In this document: positions 7,512-53,739 of the stretch, in pieces
Layout: each line of letters begins with the position of its first letter
Position numbering within the stretch: position 1 is the first letter of the stretch
DNA from: a virus
Lineage: Duplodnaviria; Caudoviricetes
Strand: one strand, 5' to 3'
Length of the DNA: 64,000 bases
IMG/VR virus record: IMGVR_UViG_3300027710_000022
Coordinates: 1 to 64,000 of that record
The notes under the pieces: generated by a model
Seen by the model: the letters and a program-made list of their open reading frames with translations, nothing else
What the model was told of the DNA's origin: nothing
Database searches by the model: none
Made by a program: the position numbers and the translations under genes

Positions 7512-8939
7512 ATGAAATTATTAGACATTGTATATGAATCTGTTGTTGACGAGGGGTTAAAAGTCACTCAAGACGAATTCATGCAAAGAGTTAAGCGTAA
7601 ATTCAAGAATGATTTAGTTACACTACCTAATGGTAAAAAAGTTCCTCGTTATGACTTTTCCAAAACAGTTTATAAAGGTGCTAGAGTTCCTATAACTTTT
7701 TATTGTAACAAAATAGGTAAGGACGGTAAACCACATGGTACACAACAAGTGGGTGCTTTAAACAACATGTTAAATAGAAACGATGGTTGTAAATTGTGTG
7801 GTGCTGAGAACACATCATCTCGTTTTGGTCATAATCAAGATAAGTTTATAAAAAAAGCGGAAGAAAAATGGGGAAAGGGTAGATGGGACTACTCTAACTT
7901 AAAATATACAGGGAGTGAAGAACCTGTAGATATTATCTGTCACAGAAAAGATGAAAATGGTGTGGAGCATGGACCATTTAGAATTAATAGAGCACAGTGG
8001 TTCTTAACAAAGAATAATCCCATGTATTGTAAACAATGTTCCAATGAATATCGTGCAAATTCAAGAACTGAAAAATCACGTACCCGTGAGGAGTTTATAA
8101 AAAAGGCTGAAGAAGTAAACGGTAAGGGTACATACGATTATAGTCAGATGATTTATAAACAAGGTAAGGGTAAGGAACCTGTAAAAAATATCATATGTCA
8201 TAAAAAAGATGAGAATGGTGTGGAACACGGTTTGTTTAATGTGAAACTGGCACAAAGTTTAATTGCCCAAGAGAGACCTGTAGGTTGTCCAAAGTGTGGA
8301 AAACTTAAGAAAACAGAAAGAGTATCATATAAAAAAGATGAATGGATTGAATTTTCTCGTAGTATACATAAATTGAAAGATGGAACACCAAAATATACCT
8401 ACGAGAAAATTGATTTGATAAAATCACCCTATATACAATCCCTTGATTATGTGATTCTAAACTGTCCAAAAAAAGGACATGGTGATTTTTCTATTAAATC
8501 TGGTGCTCATTTATATAGTAAATCAGGTTGTCCCAAATGTGCAACATCCAAAGGTGAGGATGCTGTGGCACAATATCTTTATTCTTTAGGTTATGACACA
8601 ATAAAGGATAAAAGATTTGATGACTGTACAAACGCTTGGAAAGGAATTCAATGTTACAGATATAAATTTGATGCATATTGTCCAGAACTAAACACCATAT
8701 TTGAATTTGATGGTGGATTTCATTTTATAAGAACCTTTAAACAGACCGAGGAACATTTTCAATTACGTGTAATGGATGATAAATACAAAAACAACTATTG
8801 TAAGAGGAAAGGTATCAAATTGGTGAGAATTGCATATACTGATATGAAAGATATCAAAGGACAGATTGATAAAGCATTAAAGAGTAATAAGATGTTATGG
8901 TTATCTGATAATTACCCTAAGAAGGGTTGGAACAGTTAG
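7512..8939 (+). CDS. DUF723-type Zn-ribbon repeat protein with C-terminal Vsr/DUF559-like nuclease (homing-endonuclease-like)
   Basis: Repeats of EFI..A....G.YDYS...Y...V.IIC...HG.F...GCxxC; C-terminal SKGE...KFDAYCPELNTIFEFDGGFH...D..KN.YC...I.L.RI. Confidence 0.75.
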   Translation: MKLLDIVYESVVDEGLKVTQDEFMQRVKRKFKNDLVTLPNGKKVPRYDFSKTVYKGARVPITFYCNKIGKDGKPHGTQQVGALNNMLNRNDGCKLCGAENTSSRFGHNQDKFIKKAEEKWGKGRWDYSNLKYTGSEEPVDIICHRKDENGVEHGPFRINRAQWFLTKNNPMYCKQCSNEYRANSRTEKSRTREEFIKKAEEVNGKGTYDYSQMIYKQGKGKEPVKNIICHKKDENGVEHGLFNVKLAQSLIAQERPVGCPKCGKLKKTERVSYKKDEWIEFSRSIHKLKDGTPKYTYEKIDLIKSPYIQSLDYVILNCPKKGHGDFSIKSGAHLYSKSGCPKCATSKGEDAVAQYLYSLGYDTIKDKRFDDCTNAWKGIQCYRYKFDAYCPELNTIFEFDGGFHFIRTFKQTEEHFQLRVMDDKYKNNYCKRKGIKLVRIAYTDMKDIKGQIDKALKSNKMLWLSDNYPKKGWNS

Positions 8940-9442: not shown

Positions 9443-9548
9443 GATTTATAAATATTAACGGTAAATTTTTTAGAATATGAGTACACAATATTCGTAAAAT
9501 AAACTACATTTTAAAAAAACATGGACATAGATGTCCGAATTATATATT

Positions 9549-10964
9549 ATGAAAATCAACGAACTTTACGAAACGGTAATTAATTATCAAACACAGAACA
9601 GGGTATTCTTTCAGAATGCCGAGAATTGGGACATTAGAAGATTGGGTGAAATGTATAAAGAAGGTGAACTAATCTTGCAGGATTGGTTTCAACGAGACTA
9701 TTGTTGGAACAAACCTCAGATATGTTCATTAATGCACACCTTGCTACACACCCCAACTTTATTACCCGAGATTGTACTCATCAGAATCGGAGACAAGTAC
9801 CACGTGGCTGACGGTCACCAAAGACTTCGTAGTATTTTATTGGAAGTTTTAACCAATCCCGATTTCAAGTACTTTTCAAAGGAACTTACCGAATCAACCA
9901 AGTACTTTAACGTGGGACCTAAGAATGCAGAACTATGGAAGGAGTTTAGTAGGGAGATTGAAAGAAAAACTATTACAGTTAAAGTTATCATCAATAATAA
10001 CTTGGATGAAAATGAATTACGTAACCTCAGTTCTTATGTCTTTAAGAAATGGAATAATGGTACAGCTTTGAGTCCTGCTGAAAAGAGAGGAGCATTTCCA
10101 TCCGATTTAAATATCAATATCGTTCAAAGACTTAAAAATAACATCCCAGTGGAGAAACAAATATCTCTATTGGTTTCAAGAACGTCAAGTAAGAATAAGT
10201 TTAATGAGTTGGTGGAAAAGGTTTTCTTTCACTTCATGAATCCAAATGCACTACATGACCCAAATGACGATGGGTATAGTACCATACATTCCTATTCCGA
10301 AGATGAATACAGTGGTAAATTTAAAACCTTCTATAAGTTGTTTAACGTTATGACGGATACGGTTTATAACTATACCAACTTCAATGGACATTTTGGACCA
10401 GGTTCTTGTTGTATGAGAGATGTTCTTACCTTTGTGAATGATTTATATCTTAAGAACGAAATTAAATCCTTTGATGAGTACAGTTGGTACCTTACATCTG
10501 TTCTTGATACTCTACATACAACTTATTACAATAACAAACGATTTGACGATTACCATGGAGGTAACTACGAAATAATTGATATGGAAATCAATAACACTTG
10601 GTTTAAAGGTTTCTTCTGCCATTTCGGTAAAGGTCAAGATCATAAATTCGAAAATCGTAGAACATTCCTATATGACAATAGAGAGTTGTTTGGCAAACTT
10701 ATTGAGTACGACCACCAAAGATTGTTTACACAGGTACAGAAACAAATAAAATATATTGAACAAAATAGAATCTGTGTTGGATTCGATGGTGGCGGTTGCA
10801 GATACCACGGGACCGAACCTTTGTCATATGGTGAAATGGAAGGTGACCATATCGTTGAACATACCAATGGAGGAAAAACGGTTATCGAAAACCTTCAAAT
10901 GTTATGTATGGAATGCCATTCCGAAAAAACAAAACAATTCAATACAAAAGAAATTGTTGAATAA
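9549..10964 (+). CDS. DUF262 plus C-terminal HNH nuclease (GmrSD-like)
   Basis: FQRDYCW and DGHQRL in DUF262; GDHIVEHTNGGKTVIENLQMLCMECH in HNH. Confidence 0.8.
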   Translation: MKINELYETVINYQTQNRVFFQNAENWDIRRLGEMYKEGELILQDWFQRDYCWNKPQICSLMHTLLHTPTLLPEIVLIRIGDKYHVADGHQRLRSILLEVLTNPDFKYFSKELTESTKYFNVGPKNAELWKEFSREIERKTITVKVIINNNLDENELRNLSSYVFKKWNNGTALSPAEKRGAFPSDLNINIVQRLKNNIPVEKQISLLVSRTSSKNKFNELVEKVFFHFMNPNALHDPNDDGYSTIHSYSEDEYSGKFKTFYKLFNVMTDTVYNYTNFNGHFGPGSCCMRDVLTFVNDLYLKNEIKSFDEYSWYLTSVLDTLHTTYYNNKRFDDYHGGNYEIIDMEINNTWFKGFFCHFGKGQDHKFENRRTFLYDNRELFGKLIEYDHQRLFTQVQKQIKYIEQNRICVGFDGGGCRYHGTEPLSYGEMEGDHIVEHTNGGKTVIENLQMLCMECHSEKTKQFNTKEIVE

Positions 10965-45395: not shown

Positions 45396-45805
45396 TGGTG
45401 GAGGTGACGGGACTCGAACCCGTGTCTTTCCTGTTCAACAATAAATGACTACACGTTTATTCAATTAGTTCACAACTGACAAATATTTGGTTCCTATTTT
45501 GACATCGTTACCAACAACTGTGTCGAGTTCACTTTTGTTACGGTAGTCCTCTGAACGAGACCGTTTGTTTCTTTTTGGGTAGAAACCACACCTTAAGTAC
45601 TTCTGTTCCTAGGTTATATGTACGTCGACCCGATTGTAGTTTCGCCTTAGGCTACTGCTACGTTAGAAGTTGCAAGAATACCTGCTACTTCCATGTTGTT
45701 GTAAACGTTGCCGTCTAAAATTTTCCACCGTAGATTTAAGTCATAGATGAAGTCTGACTACGTGCCACTTACCCCTGATACCTGAAATCAATGCCAGGCA
45801 CCCCC
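45396..45805 (-). ncRNA. ssrA: tmRNA
   Basis: Acceptor stem GGGGGUG/CACCUCC with G3-U70, A73 and encoded CCA; T-arm GGUUCGAGUCC; internal tag ORF 45712-45647 encodes GNVYNNMEVAGILATSNVAVA*. Confidence 0.92.
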
Positions 45806-45810
45806 ATATT

Positions 45811-45855
45811 TTAAAGAACTTATACAAATGTAGATGAAAAAGGGTTAAAAAACAA
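45811..45855 (-). promoter_or_regulatory. Host-type promoter plus boxA-like element upstream of tmRNA
   Basis: TTTG-N19-TACATTTG, then AGTTCTTTAA. Confidence 0.7.
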
Positions 45856-45889
45856 ATTTTAACCCTTAAATTCCTATATGTGTAATTAT

Positions 45890-46228: not shown

Positions 46229-46918
46229 CTAAAATCGATTAACCCTTAAAGGGAAGTGTTTCTCATATAATGCTTCAAAAAACAACTTATTTTTCTCCCA
46301 TTGTTTATTAGTCATACCAATAGATTTGTGTGTTACCATTATTTTAGTGGTAACCCCAACTTTAATTCCATCTAAATGGTTGTCAACACAAAATGGTAAA
46401 TCATAAAAATGAAACCCTGTAAATTCTTCATTAAACTTATGTTTAATTCTACCTTTATGAACCATAATAAACAATCCATCAACAATTACCACTTCTTTTG
46501 GTTTGTCACCAAATGATTGTTTTGAATAGTGATTTACATGTCTTTTACCTTCATGTTCATGACCCACAACACCATACATAGATTCTCTATCTTGCCACCA
46601 CATTCCACTCATTAAGTTATCAGTACCTGCCAATCCTAAAATTCCATATTCAGGATTTTCTTCAAAAAGTCTAACAACTTTTGGTGTAATGTTGGAAGTT
46701 TCTAAAATAAGATCATCATGCATAAACACAACAATATCATGTTCAGAATCTTGTAATCCTGTGTTATATATTTTAGGTAGAGAATCCACACCATCATTCT
46801 CATAAATTAATATTTGAGTTTTAGGGTGTGAAAACATTTTCTCAACGTGTTTTAAATAGACATCATCAATTTTACGTGTTGAGATGACGACACTTATTGG
46901 TTCATTATATTTCGACAT
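46229..46918 (-). CDS. GT2-like glycosyltransferase (Glyco_tranf_2_5 type)
   Basis: IYN.G......DIVVFMHDD; G.LGLAG; V.IVDGLFI; FHFYD..FC. Confidence 0.75.
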   Translation of the reverse strand: MSKYNEPISVVISTRKIDDVYLKHVEKMFSHPKTQILIYENDGVDSLPKIYNTGLQDSEHDIVVFMHDDLILETSNITPKVVRLFEENPEYGILGLAGTDNLMSGMWWQDRESMYGVVGHEHEGKRHVNHYSKQSFGDKPKEVVIVDGLFIMVHKGRIKHKFNEEFTGFHFYDLPFCVDNHLDGIKVGVTTKIMVTHKSIGMTNKQWEKNKLFFEALYEKHFPLRVNRF

Positions 46919-47654
46919 GTGTTGCGATTATTTCACCATAAACTTCTTGAAGGTCTATGATTATTGGTTTATTAATTGGACTATATCCAGGATTACATAT
47001 TGACGCATTTACAAATAATGTTTTATTACCGATCTCAACACCGTAACCTTCGTGAATATGACCAAATACACTTACTAATGGATTTATTTCTTCTATTCTA
47101 TTTCGTAACAACTCACAACCAACATTCGTATTTGGTTGTCGCCAATTATTAACTAAATCTCCATATCCATTTGGTGGTCCGTGTGTAATTAACACGTCGG
47201 TATCGGTTGGGATGTTATTCCATTTTTCTAACAACTCTTCACCCATTCTCGGTAAATTAAAAGCCCAATCATAAAACCATGGTTGCCAAGGACTACCATA
47301 AAATTTAATAGGTCTTGAAAATTCATCACTTTCAATTGTTATAAAACTATCCTCTAAATAAGTTACATCAGATTGAGATAAATTTTCGGGTGACATTAAA
47401 TTATGTAACCAATCATAATCACCTTTATGGTGAGGTTGATTAACTCTTTCAAAACAATGGTCGTGATTACCTGATATGAATATTTTTTCATCAAATCCTT
47501 TAATGTTTTGAAACCAATGAATAAATTCGGTAACATCCCTTTCTCCACCTCGATTAGAAATATCACCCGCATGTATTAGCACATCACCAGATGGTATTTC
47601 GTGGGCCATACCACTATGTAAACTATGTGTGTCAGATATACAAACGATTCTCAT
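46905..47654 (-). CDS. Calcineurin-like metallophosphoesterase
   Basis: ISDTH, HAGD, GNHD, THGPP, GHIHE. Confidence 0.9.
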   Translation of the reverse strand: MRIVCISDTHSLHSGMAHEIPSGDVLIHAGDISNRGGERDVTEFIHWFQNIKGFDEKIFISGNHDHCFERVNQPHHKGDYDWLHNLMSPENLSQSDVTYLEDSFITIESDEFSRPIKFYGSPWQPWFYDWAFNLPRMGEELLEKWNNIPTDTDVLITHGPPNGYGDLVNNWRQPNTNVGCELLRNRIEEINPLVSVFGHIHEGYGVEIGNKTLFVNASICNPGYSPINKPIIIDLQEVYGEIIATHVEI

Positions 47655-47722
47655 AATATCAAATATAAGTAAAATTTATTAAAATGCATAAAAAAAGTCA
47701 GAATAAATCTGACTAATTTTTT

Positions 47723-48589
47723 TTGGGCCGAACGGTTTTAAAACGTTCCAATTCCACCACTTTGTTTTACTAAACAAAGAAAAAAAACACTGAGAATACA
47801 TGTTTTAACAATTGACTTGGGGACATTATTTGATTCTTCCCTTTTCCACTACCTTTTGAGTAGTACCAATCAGCGGCGGTCAATTAGATTAACCAATCCT
47901 TAAGTCGTTATATACTCTTTTAATACTCATTACTCATCAAAGATGCCTCCCTGATTCAACCTTGCGGGTTTAGAGAACTTTTTTAAAAATCACATTGGGC
48001 TTGAGACCCTTTGTGGCCGTGAACCCCTCACGACTATGTAGCCACCTGTCTACAACGACTGACGAACACTTTTTCTTGTATGATTTTAAGTTGTTAAACC
48101 AAAATTAACAAAATTTAGTTTCCGAATTTGGGAAAGTAGTGGTTCGTCGACCAGCCAAGCCACCTTTTGAGCGACTCGATACTAAACTACTCTCTGTAAC
48201 ATCCCTGCTACCATATTTTTGGACCCCTTCAAAACTAAACTCTTGGTAGAGTTTAATAAAGGATGATAACGACACCACTCGTACTTCACCATACCTTTCG
48301 GTTTTAAGATTCCCATCATATTGAATCACGCAATTGTAAAGTCGGATAACGATACTTCTCACAATAACTCTATGGATTATTCTTATTGGTGTTCCCACCT
48401 CAACCAAACAACTCGGATTGCTTGGTCGTCAAACCACTTTCCCTAAAGTGTTACCCTCAGTACTTAAGGTTTAACGATACTCCACTTGCCTACTCGAGAT
48501 CCATTACTGAATCCGCAACTCACCCCAACCAAGGGTTTGTCACTTTATCCCACTTTCATGGTTTATTTTAATCGACCATAGGCGGCCAA
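47723..48589 (-). ncRNA. Large (~870 nt) structured non-coding RNA, GOLLD-like candidate
   Basis: No credible ORF; GC-richer than flanks; 5' UUGGCCG can pair with 3' CGGCCCAA; many hairpins; own promoter (48627-48634) and boxA-like element; next to a phage tRNA array. Confidence 0.6.
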
Positions 48590-48599
48590 TATTTTTAAA

Positions 48600-48657
48600 T
48601 CAAAGAACTATTTCTTGTTTCTTTTACAAAGATAAGAAAACTTTTTTAAAAAACAAA
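48600..48657 (-). promoter_or_regulatory. Host-type promoter plus boxA-like element
   Basis: TTTG-N19-TATCTTTG, then AGTTCTTTGA at 48600-48609. Confidence 0.7.
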
Positions 48658-48664
48658 ATATTTT

Positions 48665-48898
48665 TTAATTATTTTCTACTTTATTTTTTTTCAATGTTTT
48701 TTTAGAAGATACTTTCTCAGTTGTCTTCTTTGTCTTGTACTCAGGATTTTTATAAAGTTTATATTCGGTCTTTGGTGCAAATGACCAATAACCACCCTTA
48801 ACTCTTAAATCCGCTTCATTGTCATCTACTCTCAGTACCTCACCAATTTCATGACCCTTACTTGCTTTAATTAATTTAATACATTTCATATTTTCCAT
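48665..48898 (-). CDS. Small basic hypothetical protein
   Basis: 77-aa ORF. Confidence 0.6.
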   Translation of the reverse strand: MENMKCIKLIKASKGHEIGEVLRVDDNEADLRVKGGYWSFAPKTEYKLYKNPEYKTKKTTEKVSSKKTLKKNKVENN

Positions 48899-48939
48899 GT
48901 TTATAATAAAATATAAGAAATAAAAACCATAAAAAAAAA

Positions 48940-49767
48940 TTAAAGTACATTTCTTTTAAATTCCTTATTAACTAAATTTGGTTCATCGTCATAACCAAAG
49001 AAGATACATTCTTTTTTAAACATTTCACATACGGTCAAATACTCATTAAGTGTAATTTCATCATAATAGTAATTCGGATTTTTTGAATGGTGATATCCTG
49101 ACAAAGAATCCTTAAAATAGGTATAGAAAACCATAAATGAATTATTCATACCGTTTGGAAAATCTTTTAAAAAATAAAATGGTTTTATATAGGGTTTATT
49201 TAATATGCCAAAATTTTTTAAATTACTTTCACTTAATAAATTGTTATTAATTTTTACAATATCATTAATATCCTCTATTCTAAAAAATCTATAATTATAA
49301 TTTTCAAAACGTTTATCATATTCTTTTCTAAAATTAAAATTTAAATTTGATATAATTTCATTACCCAATGGGTCATTTAGAAAAAAAGAACTTTGTGGTA
49401 AAAAATGAGTATCATTTGAACTTTCAATAAAAGAGTTATATTTTTGAATAAATTTTGATAAGGAGTCTATCTCAAGATCCTCAAATGTTTTTAACGACTC
49501 TTCTGTTCGTTCTAACTCTTTTTTTGTTAGTTTATTTAACATATTAAGGTCATATAATCTTTTCAACTTTACATACCAATCGTATGACGAAAAAAATCTA
49601 TCGATAGGGTTTCTTATAAATAAGAAACAATTTTTTTCTAATTCTTCATTAACAAAATTAAACTCGATTGAATTTAATTGTAATATATCTGATAAAGTTG
49701 AGTAAATTATTGTATTTCCAGATTTATGGGGGATAATAAAACTTGTATTATATTCAGGTACATTCAT
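48940..49767 (-). CDS. Sulfotransferase family 2-like protein
   Basis: IIPHKSGNT (5'-PSB-like), FIRNPIDRFFSSY (3'-PB-like), HFLPQS. Confidence 0.65.
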   Translation of the reverse strand: MNVPEYNTSFIIPHKSGNTIIYSTLSDILQLNSIEFNFVNEELEKNCFLFIRNPIDRFFSSYDWYVKLKRLYDLNMLNKLTKKELERTEESLKTFEDLEIDSLSKFIQKYNSFIESSNDTHFLPQSSFFLNDPLGNEIISNLNFNFRKEYDKRFENYNYRFFRIEDINDIVKINNNLLSESNLKNFGILNKPYIKPFYFLKDFPNGMNNSFMVFYTYFKDSLSGYHHSKNPNYYYDEITLNEYLTVCEMFKKECIFFGYDDEPNLVNKEFKRNVL

Positions 49768-49810
49768 ATGTGTATTATAAATACCATTAGGTTAACAAGA
49801 ACAATTTTTG

Positions 49811-49961
49811 CTGTAGTGGGTGGGTTCGAACCACCAAGTGGAGATTCAACCGATAACATGACGCTTGCAAGCTGGTGGTCTACCCCCTAATATTATCAAT
49901 CTGTTTCTTTGTCCACACCCCCGAGACAGGAGGGTACGTTTGCCAATTTCGTCACACTACA
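49811..49961 (-). ncRNA. 151-nt tRNA-like RNA with a greatly expanded variable region
   Basis: Acceptor UGUAGUG/CACUACA, D-arm, stem CCCUC/GGGGG with loop CUGUCUC, T-arm GGUGG UUCGAAC CCACC; about 80-nt structured insert closed by GUGGA/UCCAC. Confidence 0.7.
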
Positions 49962-50154
49962 ATATAACACCCTTTTATCAGCCGAAGCCTCACATAACCT
50001 TAGTGTGGAACCACAGGTAGGTGTCATGAATGATTACCACTGAGAATGTAGATTTTCACTAACTCGATTTAGCGGTCTCTATGGTAATTTTTTTGATGGA
50101 TGAAAAACATCTATTTTTCTTGCGGATTTCCATCGGAATCCCATAATTTAAAAG

Positions 50155-50228
50155 TGGACCAGATAGGAATCGAACCTATTACCTTCACATTATGAGTGTG
50201 CCGCTCTAACCGAGTGAGCTACAAGTCC
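50155..50228 (-). tRNA. tRNA with CAT anticodon (probably Ile2, otherwise elongator Met)
   Basis: GGACTTGTAGCTCACTCGGTTAGAGC...CTCATAA...GGTTCGATTCC cloverleaf. Confidence 0.85.
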
Positions 50229-50299
50229 AATTAATAGGTGGGGCTTAATTATTTAACTCTTTACCACCATTAAGTCTTTAATGCTTTAGACACCTATCG

Positions 50300-50373
50300 T
50301 GATCCCGTTTGGATTCGAACCAAAGACCCACATCTTAGAAGGATGTTGCTCTATCCAACTGAGCTACGGAACC
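50300..50373 (-). tRNA. tRNA-Arg(TCT)
   Basis: Anticodon arm ACATC CTTCTAA GATGT. Confidence 0.95.
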
Positions 50374-50489
50374 AAAGTAATGTAATGTCTGTACGGTTTG
50401 TATCTAATCCACACCTTTGTACGTGTTTCAAAAGTTTCCATTTCATACGTAGCGTCTGTTCCGTCACTTATTTCTAAGTCATTACATTG

Positions 50490-50574
50490 TACCTGGGGCG
50501 GGACTTGAACCCGCACGGGACTTTCGCCCCAACAGATTTTAAGTCTGTCATGTATACCATTTCATCACCCAGGC
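50490..50574 (-). tRNA. tRNA-Leu(TAA)
   Basis: Loop CTTAAAA, long variable arm. Confidence 0.95.
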
Positions 50575-50592
50575 ATTTGTTTTTCCAATACA

Positions 50593-50640
50593 TCAAAGAA
50601 CTATAATCAAATATAAGAATAAAAAATGATATAAAAAAAC
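50593..50640 (-). promoter_or_regulatory. Host-type -7 promoter box plus boxA-like element
   Basis: TATATTTG at 50608-50615, then AGTTCTTTGA at 50593-50602. Confidence 0.65.
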
Positions 50641-50691
50641 CCCGAACATTTTTTTTAGTTTGTTCGGGGGAATTAACTGAACTAAAAATGT

Positions 50692-51141
50692 TTATTTTAC
50701 TTTATACGATAACCCAAGTCCTAATGTAAAATCACTACCAACTAAATTACCGATAGTCCATAAATTTATGACATTACTTGGTCTAAGTGGATTGTACATT
50801 ATAAGAAAATTTGGTTTATTACCATTAATTGTTGGTTGTAACCCAAATCCAATAATTGCTTTGTCCTCTTTTAATTCTCTAAGAACACCAAACTTCATAT
50901 TATCAGATAAAGTTCCTGTATTGGTGTTGACACCAGGAGGAAGTGTTATTCCACCATTTTGGCTTTTCAATTCACCATATGGAAGACCTGCATAAAACCC
51001 CCAACCTTTTTTCATAAAACCACCTGTTATATAACCATCTGATGGGCCACCTTTTCGAGTGGCGGTTATAAACCACTCTTGCCCATTTGCCACGACTTCT
51101 ACTCCCAAAAGTAACGTTAGCACTAAAAAAATTTTTTTCAT
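50692..51141 (-). CDS. Exported small beta-barrel-like outer-membrane protein
   Basis: Signal peptide, alternating aromatic strands, C-terminal LGLGLSYKVK. Confidence 0.55.
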   Translation of the reverse strand: MKKIFLVLTLLLGVEVVANGQEWFITATRKGGPSDGYITGGFMKKGWGFYAGLPYGELKSQNGGITLPPGVNTNTGTLSDNMKFGVLRELKEDKAIIGFGLQPTINGNKPNFLIMYNPLRPSNVINLWTIGNLVGSDFTLGLGLSYKVK

Positions 51142-51440
51142 TTTTTTGATTTGGACAAGGAGTCTTCCGTTGCCCATTTTTCTTTTAACTTTGCTACCTT
51201 CTCAATCTTTACAATTTTACCATTCAATTTGGTAATCTCGTCCGCGATTTCTTTGGTTTTGACGGCCCTGCTAGCGAAATTTTCATCTGTTACTTCAACC
51301 CATTCAATTTTTCTTTCCAGAGATTTAATCTCTTTCTTTATTTGATTGACTGACTTTCTTTCGTCTGAAAGACTTGGGTCGATAGATGATGTTAATGTAT
51401 TAAAAAATAGCATTAACGATAGTGTGATTTTATCTATCAT
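51138..51440 (-). CDS. Exported or anchored coiled-coil protein
   Basis: Hydrophobic N-terminus followed by heptad repeats. Confidence 0.6.
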   Translation of the reverse strand: MIDKITLSLMLFFNTLTSSIDPSLSDERKSVNQIKKEIKSLERKIEWVEVTDENFASRAVKTKEIADEITKLNGKIVKIEKVAKLKEKWATEDSLSKSKK

Positions 51441-51518
51441 ATATTATAAATATTAATAATATGATAAATATACAGAATAAAATATTGTAAATCAATATCT
51501 TAATATAAAAAAATTTTG

Positions 51519-51590
51519 TACTCGGTACGGGATTCGAACCCGTGCAACCACCGTGAAAGGGTGGTGACCTAACCACTAGTCGAACCGAGC
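51519..51590 (-). tRNA. tRNA-Glu(TTC)
   Basis: CCACC CTTTCAC GGTGG. Confidence 0.95.
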
Positions 51591-51826
51591 AAGTAATCAC
51601 TCAAATGGGTATTTGTTATAATATCACAATTGTTGCACTATACTTTGGTTAATTACTCCGTCTGTATCCAACAGCTTTATGTTGGCTTATAATTGGCTAC
51701 TTTATTATAACTCACATTTTTATTTGTGATTAATTAAGAACTAACATTGCTATCAGGGTTTAAATGGTTCACAGATAAATCCGGAATCACCACCTACCGA
51801 TTTTACGGTATCTTAGTTAATTCTTG

Positions 51827-51911
51827 CAGAGAGTTAGGGATTCGAACCCCAGATACCTTTCAGTATGCCAGTTTTCAAGACTGGTGCCATCAACCACTCG
51901 GCCAACTCTCT
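51827..51911 (-). tRNA. tRNA-Ser(TGA)
   Basis: CCAGT CTTGAAA ACTGG, long variable arm, G73. Confidence 0.95.
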
Positions 51912-51998
51912 AAAATTGATTCTAACTCACCTTAAGTTGCACCATCCGAGTCACTGCTCTGGTTGACAAAGTCCTCGTTGAGTTAGTCTCAAAAAGTT

Positions 51999-52208
51999 AC
52001 AGGTTTTTCGTACCATCTATGTACATCATGACCGAAGTTTGGTTGGATTTACATCACGTCTCAGCAAACTTTACTCGGTGGTTACATTTTCGTATTGGGG
52101 TAATTATTCCCGACTTATAGTAACTCTACCCTCACCGCCCTACCTCGCGAGTCAGACGGATCTTTTGGGATTCATAGACAGTGGGGTTACACCACCGTCG
52201 TCACCTGT
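51999..52208 (-). ncRNA. Candidate ~210-nt multibranch structured RNA between tRNAs
   Basis: Closed by ACAGGU/ACCUGU; internal GACGGUGG/CCACUGUC, UCUAUG/CAUAGA, CGGUG..GUUAC/GUAAC.CACCG, GUUUG/CAAAC. Confidence 0.5.
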
Positions 52209-52210
52209 TG

Positions 52211-52284
52211 AGCCCAAACTCAGATTCGAACTGAGGACCTACTGATTACAAATCAGTTGCTCTGGCCAGCTGAGCTATTCGGGC
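52211..52284 (-). tRNA. tRNA-Thr(TGT)
   Basis: ACTGA TTTGTAA TCAGT. Confidence 0.95.
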
Positions 52285-52418
52285 TACTATGGAAAACAGA
52301 AGATGGGGGTGTGGACATCTGTTTTTATGATTGGCGTTTCTCGCTATTCGCTAGCCCCGTTAAATCCCAATCAACCATTTGTTTTACAAAGATAAAAAAT
52401 AATTTTAGATATTCCAAA

Positions 52419-53216
52419 TTATTTATTATCTTTTATATATTTTTTTAATATTTCAAATTCATTTTTAACAAATTCGGGGTCATAACTTCCCATATCTTTT
52501 ATTATATATGGTTCATATCCCATTTTTTTAATCTCATTAATTTTAATATTGTCACGATTTTTAACTTGTTTAAGTGAATGTTTTTTAGTTATTTTTTCAT
52601 AATGCCATTTACCATTCCACATAATTGCTAATTTATAGTCATTAATTATTACATCGGCATCCCATCCATTAAACATATTTTCATTAGATAAAACATCGTT
52701 ATATTCTTTTTTACAAAGTTCAAATAATAAAATTTCATTTTTACTTCTTTTACCTTGTTTTGATTTTTTACCACCCGCAGATCCCGAGCATTTGTATGAA
52801 CAAAATCTTCCTTTTAAATTTTCTTTACGTTCAAAATGTTTACCACAGTTATCACATCTACGTATTGTATATTTTATTTCTTTTTTGGGTCTCGGAGGTT
52901 TGTTTTTTAACGAAACAGATATTTTAATTCTTGTTTCTTCATTAAAATCTCTACTATTTGAACATTTATAAGAACAATGTTTTGGGTAATCCCCTATTGA
53001 AAATATATGTTCAGTTACATTTATTTTATATTCTTTATCACATTTTACACAATTTAATATCTTTTCATTTTTAATTTGGTTTTTTGTAATTAACGATTTT
53101 TCAATCATTAATTTTTTATTTGGGTTCATAGAACAATTAGTCACGTGAGCTCCTGCTTGTTGTTTCTTTTCAAAAACAAACGTTTCATTACAAAACTTAC
53201 ATTTATATTCCATCAT
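52419..53216 (-). CDS. Homing-endonuclease-like protein (Zn-finger repeats plus Vsr/DUF559-like nuclease) inside the tRNA array
   Basis: CKFC, HCSYKCS, FCSYKCS; SKNE...WDADVII...AIMWNGKWHY...RD..K. Confidence 0.7.
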   Translation of the reverse strand: MMEYKCKFCNETFVFEKKQQAGAHVTNCSMNPNKKLMIEKSLITKNQIKNEKILNCVKCDKEYKINVTEHIFSIGDYPKHCSYKCSNSRDFNEETRIKISVSLKNKPPRPKKEIKYTIRRCDNCGKHFERKENLKGRFCSYKCSGSAGGKKSKQGKRSKNEILLFELCKKEYNDVLSNENMFNGWDADVIINDYKLAIMWNGKWHYEKITKKHSLKQVKNRDNIKINEIKKMGYEPYIIKDMGSYDPEFVKNEFEILKKYIKDNK

Positions 53217-53254
53217 ACTCATTAATATAATTAATAAATATGACAAAATCAAAG

Positions 53255-53341
53255 TTGCGGGTGCAGGATTCGAACCTGACGTGTCGTTTTACCGACGTGT
53301 GCTTATGAGACACCTGAGTTTGACCACTACTCTAACCCGCA
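53255..53341 (-). tRNA. Atypical tRNA-Met(CAT) with fMet-like acceptor stem and long variable arm
   Basis: TGCGGGT/ACCCGCA-A, loop CTCATAA, extra arm GTCG GTAAAA CGAC; 87 nt. Confidence 0.7.
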
Positions 53342-53346
53342 AAATG

Positions 53347-53417
53347 TTGTCCCTCGTGGATTCGAACCACAACTAGATGGACCAAAACCACCTGTACTAC
53401 CGTTATACTAAAGGACA
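53347..53417 (-). tRNA. tRNA-Gln(TTG)
   Basis: GGTGG TTTTGGT CCATC. Confidence 0.92.
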
Positions 53418-53422
53418 ATATG

Positions 53423-53502
53423 TACCCAAGGTCGGACTCGAACCGACACGCCTTTCGACACGGTTTCTAAGACCGCTGTGTATACCATTCCACCACTCGG
53501 GT
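53423..53502 (-). tRNA. tRNA-Leu(TAG)
   Basis: GCGGT CTTAGAA ACCGT, variable arm. Confidence 0.95.
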
Positions 53503-53509
53503 ATTATTG

Positions 53510-53581
53510 CACGCATGTAAGGACTCGAACCTTCATCTTCGGTTTTGGAGACCGAAATTCTACCAATTGAACTACACACGC
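53510..53581 (-). tRNA. tRNA-Trp(CCA)
   Basis: TCGGT CTCCAAA ACCGA. Confidence 0.95.
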
Positions 53582-53587
53582 GTTTTG

Positions 53588-53659
53588 CGTTGATGATAGG
53601 ACTCGAACCTATAATCGTTCGGTTAACAGCCGAAAGCTTCACCATTAAGCTACATCAAC
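53588..53659 (-). tRNA. tRNA-Asn(GTT)
   Basis: TTCGG CTGTTAA CCGAA. Confidence 0.93.
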
Positions 53660-53664
53660 AACTG

Positions 53665-53739
53665 TAGGGTAAAGAGGACTCGAACCTCCATGATACCTTG
53701 CTCCCAAAGCAAGTGACTTAGCCATTAGTCCATTACCCT
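53665..53739 (-). tRNA. tRNA-Pro(TGG)
   Basis: CTTGC TTTGGGA GCAAG. Confidence 0.9.

Follow-up and report, generated by a model that had tools for sequence, protein, structure and literature searches.

The window analysed here, a 64,000-nt stretch of a virus record from IMG/VR, holds a segment (47723-48589) that a first-pass annotation, made from the letters alone, had described as a non-coding RNA of about 870 nt, "GOLLD-like or a new giant RNA". This locus raises the question of which of the two alternatives holds, where the RNA begins and ends, and how it is transcribed. GOLLD RNA was reportedly described by Weinberg et al. in 2009. The gene is no new kind of RNA but a complete representative of this already known family, apparently with high expression.

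Identity and extent of the RNA

The core RNA extended from 48588 to 47787 on the minus strand (about 800 nt) and comprised two structured, covarying domains:

48195-48588, minus strand, 394 nt: GOLLD 5' domain, 22 helices, delimited by alignment with 57 distinct relatives; outside the Rfam model
47787-48194, minus strand, 408 nt: GOLLD 3' domain, the universal part of the family, delimited by the full-length match to RF02032

Family membership rests on a covariance model match. An Rfam scan of the whole window matched 47787-48194 on the minus strand to GOLLD (RF02032) with 309.6 bits (E 1e-87), twice the gathering score of 150 bits for this family, and the match spanned model positions 1-416 of 416 without truncation. 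Since the match runs end to end, the GOLLD half of the first-pass annotation was right and its "new giant RNA" half was excluded. The annotation had also called for a cmsearch with the GOLLD and ROOL models; this search was run, and besides the full-length GOLLD match it returned no match to ROOL at E<=1 in a permissive Rfam rescan of 47500-48900. Like GOLLD, ROOL is a large ornate phage RNA encoded near tRNA islands, and it forms a cage made of RNA only, with a disordered linker inside, but in sequence and secondary structure it is unrelated to GOLLD (PMC12286853). Matches to mir-287 and RsaF obtained in the same rescan (about 20 bits) were considered as noise, and no other credible Rfam family was found there.

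In the GOLLD RNA env-38, whose structure was solved by cryo-EM (Kretsch et al. 2025, PMC12286853), the 5' domain encompasses residues 1-420 and the 3' region residues 421-833. The 416-position model of Rfam corresponds to the GOLLD 3' region, and a 5' domain was therefore expected upstream on the minus strand, i.e., at higher window coordinates, where the segment of the first-pass annotation indeed extends. At the other end, the conserved RNA stopped near 47787, about 60 nt short of the 3' end given by that annotation.

Relatives and conserved structure

A degenerate motif from the 3' domain retrieved 103 IMG/VR loci, 99 of which aligned to the window sequence with nhmmer, 84 of them over both domains (63 distinct). 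Many of the IMG/VR contigs carrying these relatives were 200-320 kb long. The annotated phage collection provided one distant match only, in an uncultured phage of 634,780 bp (LR745206.1), where 206 nt of the 5' domain aligned at 73% identity. The motif scan of bacterial genomes gave 49 loci, mostly chance matches. The sole locus of the bacterial collection aligning with the GOLLD clade of the window copy (88.8 bits) was found in a Melioribacteraceae MAG (L142, 6247-7066); this Ignavibacteriota MAG may include a prophage there, or a phage contig may have been mis-binned into it.

The window copy and 57 distinct relatives were aligned (58 sequences), and RNAalifold on this alignment gave 193 pairs, of which 142 changed in a compensatory manner; the covariation term amounted to -50 kcal/mol. 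In the 5' domain, 103 pairs in 22 helices were counted and compared with shuffles and with pairs whose partners were slid by 1-3 columns:

Cells forming standard pairs: observed 97.5%; shuffles 82.2%; partners slid 37-42%
Pairs changed on both sides: observed 71; shuffles 50.6; partners slid 22-27
Covariation score: observed 0.533; shuffles 0.232; partners slid 0.07-0.11

None of 500 shuffles reached the observed value on any of the three measures. As it exceeded both the shuffle and the slide controls, the 5' domain qualifies as structured and conserved, which brings the core RNA to about 800 nt.

These results bear on whether the locus could represent a new giant structured RNA family, GOLLD-like in size and context only. 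The Rfam model is silent on the 5' 394 nt and on the 3' tail, as a new family would have it, and the GOLLD 5' region is less conserved according to the literature. Against this, the 3' domain fitted the GOLLD model end to end at twice the cut-off, the 5' domain was common to the 84 loci retrieved through a motif of the 3' domain, and size, linker and tRNA context were all typical of GOLLD, making a new family extremely improbable. With very high confidence, 48588-47787 on the minus strand is a bona fide GOLLD RNA gene, from a very large freshwater phage with Bacteroidota-type promoters.

The 5' domain opened with a local helix, in which 48588-48585 pairs with 48576-48573 on the minus strand. 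Its outer pair was formed in all 58 sequences (GC in 28, UG in 12, UA in 10, CG in 7 and AU in 1). The loop of this helix (GCCUAU, 48583-48578) was complementary to GUAGGC (48493-48488), a stretch located 90 nt downstream, and all six positions were paired in 58 of the 58 sequences. Two of these positions covaried, the first as UA (40 sequences) or CG (18) and the second as GC (24), CG (22), AU (11) or UA (1). Together, 48583-48578 and 48493-48488 form a predicted pseudoknot or kissing contact, either within one chain or between chains.

Two further elements of the 3' domain were compared with env-38:

48071-48137, minus strand, 67 nt: AU-rich linker inside the 3' domain, unpaired in the model
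47944-47966, minus strand: adjacent hairpin loops GCAA (47965-47962) and GGCA (47947-47944), each with a self-complementary GC

The linker was poorly conserved, varied between 54 and 76 nt among the 58 sequences, and contained no tRNA. Its position matches that of the disordered linker of env-38 (nt 497-538), which lies inside the cage (PMC12286853). The first of the two loops read CGCAA in 53 sequences and GUCGA in five, a switch from GC to CG; the second was almost invariant, with GGCA in 53 sequences, CGCA in four and CGCG in one. In GOLLD, the self-pairing loop L21a shows a GC/CG switch and L21b is conserved (PMC12286853). As counterparts of the symmetric kissing loops L21a and L21b, the GCAA and GGCA loops, mapped by counting offsets, are suggestive candidates. 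The hairpin loops named in the first-pass annotation (CCGAAAGG, CCCGCAAGG and two UCAAAAG loops) were all present and conserved.

Composition and coding potential

The segment had been described as GC-richer and poor in open reading frames, and both statements held. Its G+C content reached 0.38-0.40 vs 0.25-0.33 in the flanks. The minimum-energy fold of the minus strand amounted to -240 kcal/mol (z -4.0) vs -182 kcal/mol (z -1.7) for the plus strand. The largest open reading frame (48105-48407, minus strand) encoded 100 aa and was open in only 10 of the 58 homologues. It is the one feature that would favour degenerate or unannotated protein-coding DNA, with structure as a by-product of base composition. 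This frame was however interrupted by internal stops in 48 of the 58 homologues and its aligned length was out of frame in 28, 97.5% of the pair cells were retained through 1016 double changes, and the region matched GOLLD in Rfam. A coding reading of the region was rejected on these grounds, its probability being negligible.

Promoter, 3' end and RNA libraries

With a promoter, a leader and a terminator of its own, the gene forms an independent transcription unit:

48657-48627, minus strand: Bacteroidota-type promoter TTTG-N19-TAtcTTTG (-33 box TTTG at 48657-48654, -7 box TAtcTTTG at 48634-48627)
48608-48600, minus strand: leader 9-mer GTTCTTTGA (GUUCUUUGA), rrn-type boxA-like, 18 nt after the -7 box
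47730-47786, minus strand: close-clade 3' tail of 55 nt with two hairpins (47779-47760 and 47748-47730), U-run included in the coordinates; defined by sequence and alignment
47689-47714, minus strand: strong intrinsic terminator, a 7-bp stem (47714-47696) followed by U7

The promoter proposed by the first-pass annotation was recovered as TTTG-N19-TAtcTTTG, the -33/-7 promoter consensus of the Bacteroidetes. This motif occurred 19 times in the window vs 3.9 expected, and none of 100 shuffles reached 19. It was also found before the tmRNA (45825-45856) and a tRNA-Thr gene (52387-52418), and the same promoter box was located upstream of most relatives. Transcription probably starts at about 48621.

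At the other end, a run of eight U (47787-47780) directly followed the last GOLLD hairpin. The 3' tail beyond it could be aligned within the close clade only, where its stems changed in a compensatory manner; other relatives displayed a tRNA-Met or a terminator in its place.

The stretch or its close relatives were detected, at half or more of the sampled words, in 20 runs from 14 studies; six of these runs, belonging to five studies, were metatranscriptomes, for the most part of freshwater. Four RNA runs, each from a separate study (X15, X17, X18 and X19), were compared with window positions 46500-50000. In these four freshwater metatranscriptomes, contigs covered only about 47754-48605, and the 2.6 kb of flanking protein genes were essentially uncovered, uncovered parts being weak evidence. 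Summed word depth reached 5.6e5 in X15 and 3.9e4 in X17, values to which relatives at 90% identity or more contribute and which, coming from contigs, carry no strand, exact ends, timing or true expression level. Depth fell about 30- to 80-fold between the bins flanking 47787 and was low over the 3' tail, although one contig ran to 47754. Adapter-like loose ends at 47790 and 48578 in the RNA contigs are weak hints, not mapped ends. This depth pattern fits an abundant, discrete and stable RNA that mostly ends at the U-run, and it argues against DNA carry-over.

GOLLD of the clade in question was among the deepest-covered sequences in the four freshwater metatranscriptomes. Its variants were spread there over hundreds of contigs (669 in X15), a diversity suggestive of a mixture of many phage strains.

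Pairing of the two ends

According to the first-pass annotation, the 5' and 3' ends of the RNA pair with each other. The complementarity exists in the window sequence, between UUGGCC (48589-48584) and GGCCCAA (47729-47723), and the minimum-energy fold of the single sequence uses four of these pairs (GGCC/GGCC). Both partners were present in 15-17 of 20 close relatives. If this pairing closed the whole RNA, the GOLLD core would be an insert in a closed frame. The pairing was nevertheless confined to the closest clade, showed zero compensatory changes among the 20 close relatives and was broken in 3-5 of them; it was absent in the other 38 sequences, in which the 3' tail cannot be aligned. Moreover, the 5' GGCC is occupied by the strongly covarying local helix described above, and RNA depth dropped sharply before the 3' partner. 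End pairing as a conserved feature was rejected, and a closed frame is very unlikely; of the earlier description, complementarity in this one sequence stands and conservation does not. The preferred reading remains a GOLLD core that opens with its local first helix and ends near the U-run.

A boxA-like element in the leader

The boxA-like element noticed in the first-pass annotation was recovered as the leader 9-mer GTTCTTTGA, 11 nt before the first GOLLD helix. It was widespread among the relatives: of 53 unique upstream regions, 52 contained GTTCTTT[GA]A, at a distance of 13-106 nt from the first GOLLD helix, for a background of 0.026 per 250 nt. In the relatives, the element was mostly located 17-28 nt after the TAnnTTTG box, and in many of them a hairpin directly preceded it. 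The leader in the window was without such a hairpin.

The same phage carried further copies. The 9-mer was also present at 50601-50593 on the minus strand, between a TAnnTTTG box and the tRNA-Leu/Arg/Met unit, and the tmRNA leader contained the copy GTTCTTTAAAA, with the 9-mer at 45819-45811 on the minus strand. In these two leaders, the TAnnTTTG box was followed after 5-6 nt by GTTCTTTAA (tmRNA, 45806-45856, minus strand) or by GTTCTTTGA (tRNA-Leu, 50575-50625, minus strand).

The gamma-proteobacterial boxA consensus is GYTCTTTAANA (PMC5725501). The tmRNA copy matched it perfectly, and the GOLLD and tRNA-Leu copies deviated from it at two of the 11 positions (8 and 11). In the phylum Bacteroidota, an identical 9-mer was found 114 nt before both 16S genes of a complete Cyclobacteriaceae chromosome (L154 and L155). 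In both of these rrn leaders, TAtcTTTG was followed by a hairpin and next by AAAGTTCTTTGAAC, which provides a concrete example of a boxB/boxA-like arrangement in this phylum. When bacterial genomes were searched for copies of the 9-mer located 95-125 nt before the 27F primer site, at least 120 loci were obtained, with Bacteroidota and Bacillota dominating the matches listed; some tens of these matches are possible by chance, and the search was counted as supporting evidence only. A literature search returned no paper connecting GOLLD with boxA.

The 9-mer could instead be a phage signal other than a Nus-factor boxA, such as a promoter-proximal element, a site for an antiterminator encoded by the phage, or a site at which stable RNAs are processed. 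Its position only 5-28 nt after the -7 box, near the transcript start, would suit such a signal, as would the deviation of the GOLLD and tRNA-Leu copies from the E. coli-type consensus at two positions. The perfect fit of the tmRNA copy to GYTCTTTAANA points the other way, as do the identical 9-mer in both Bacteroidota rrn leaders, preceded there by a hairpin as in many relatives, and its spacing from 16S in at least 120 genomes, which is that of an rrn leader. A signal of this kind is rather unlikely, although it keeps a sizeable share of the probability. The element is probably an rrn-type boxA leader, common to the phage tmRNA and one tRNA unit and possibly unreported for GOLLD. More broadly, GOLLD genes of lake Bacteroidota phages may be built like miniature rRNA operons, in which a host-type promoter is followed, often after a boxB-like hairpin, by a boxA identical to the rrn boxA of the host; the chances of this are about even.

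As in an rRNA antitermination leader, the 9-mer is part of a leader that is transcribed, and the RNA that follows is long, structured and not translated. The window gene differs from such leaders in being a phage gene for a non-ribosomal RNA, in having no hairpin and in placing the element very near the promoter; binding of NusB/S10 is putative.

Genomic context

The tRNA neighbourhood invoked by the first-pass annotation was present, with a tmRNA and 12 tRNAs on the same strand within 6 kb:

45396-45805, minus strand: tmRNA (Rfam scan and ARAGORN)
50154-53739, minus strand: 12 tRNAs (Rfam scan and ARAGORN)
46229-46918: glycosyltransferase, neighbouring gene (Pfam/PHROG scans)
46905-47654: metallophosphoesterase, neighbouring gene (Pfam/PHROG scans)
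48940-49767: sulfotransferase-like protein, upstream of GOLLD (Pfam/PHROG scans)

ARAGORN and Rfam agreed on the 13 RNA genes, all on the minus strand. Among 20 neighbouring and large proteins searched against Pfam and PHROG, HNH endonucleases and a methyltransferase were also matched, and no phage hallmark protein was seen. Few of the large proteins matched PHROGs, which is usual for very large uncultured phages. Two large HNH/homing-endonuclease-like proteins were encoded close together on the plus strand (7512-8939 and 9531-10964), with matches to PHROG 559 (E 1e-37) and several HNH PHROGs. Promoter type and rrn-type leader agree with a probable Bacteroidota host.

Nothing essential separated the window RNA from GOLLD. 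It shared with the family the full-length match of the 3' domain, the two-domain core of about 800 nt, the variable AU-rich linker and a phage-borne position beside a tRNA island, and some relatives carried a tRNA-Met directly downstream. Its differences lay in the Bacteroidota-type promoter, the boxA-type leader, the 55-nt two-hairpin tail of the close clade and a linker without tRNA, as well as in a Bacteroidota host lineage and a very large phage, whereas the cases in the literature come from Lactobacillales and Mycobacterium.

Proposed biogenesis and function

A sequence of events can be proposed from these elements. Transcription would start near 48621, and the nascent leader GUUCUUUGA would act like the boxA of a host rRNA operon, loading NusB/S10 and other Nus factors on RNA polymerase. 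So equipped, the polymerase would carry the long untranslated transcript past Rho termination, and the RNA would fold while being made. Most molecules would end at the U-run at about 47787, and a minority would continue to the terminator at 47714-47696.

GOLLD RNA is reported to rise during phage lysis. The RNA-only cage of 14 subunits is known for env-38 only (PMC12286853), and by homology with it the window RNA may assemble, free of protein, into a 14-subunit cage. In such a cage, the 5' domains would form the caps and the 3' domains the ring, with the AU-rich linker inside. The RNA may help to take over or to buffer translation during late infection; this best guess, of low confidence, is put forward because the tmRNA and 12 tRNA genes adjoin the gene and because GOLLD was reported to bind ribosomes in pull-downs (PMC12286853).

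Significance

As an RNA, the molecule is ordinary for its family, which has been on record since 2009 and whose cage structure was solved in 2025. The locus provides a cleanly delimited GOLLD gene (promoter, leader, core, tail and terminator), and the 57 distinct full-length relatives define the 5' domain omitted by Rfam. The RNA appears to be very abundant in freshwater metatranscriptomes. The conserved rrn-type boxA leader suggests how an untranslated RNA of 0.8 kb gets transcribed to its end and folded: if the element loads NusB/S10, GOLLD would be made and folded by the antitermination/chaperone complex that the host uses for rRNA. If true, this would offer a first way into GOLLD biogenesis and hint at a connection with the ribosome binding reported for GOLLD. 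Taken together, the delimited gene, its leader and the abundance of the RNA open GOLLD biogenesis to testing in Bacteroidota phage-host pairs.
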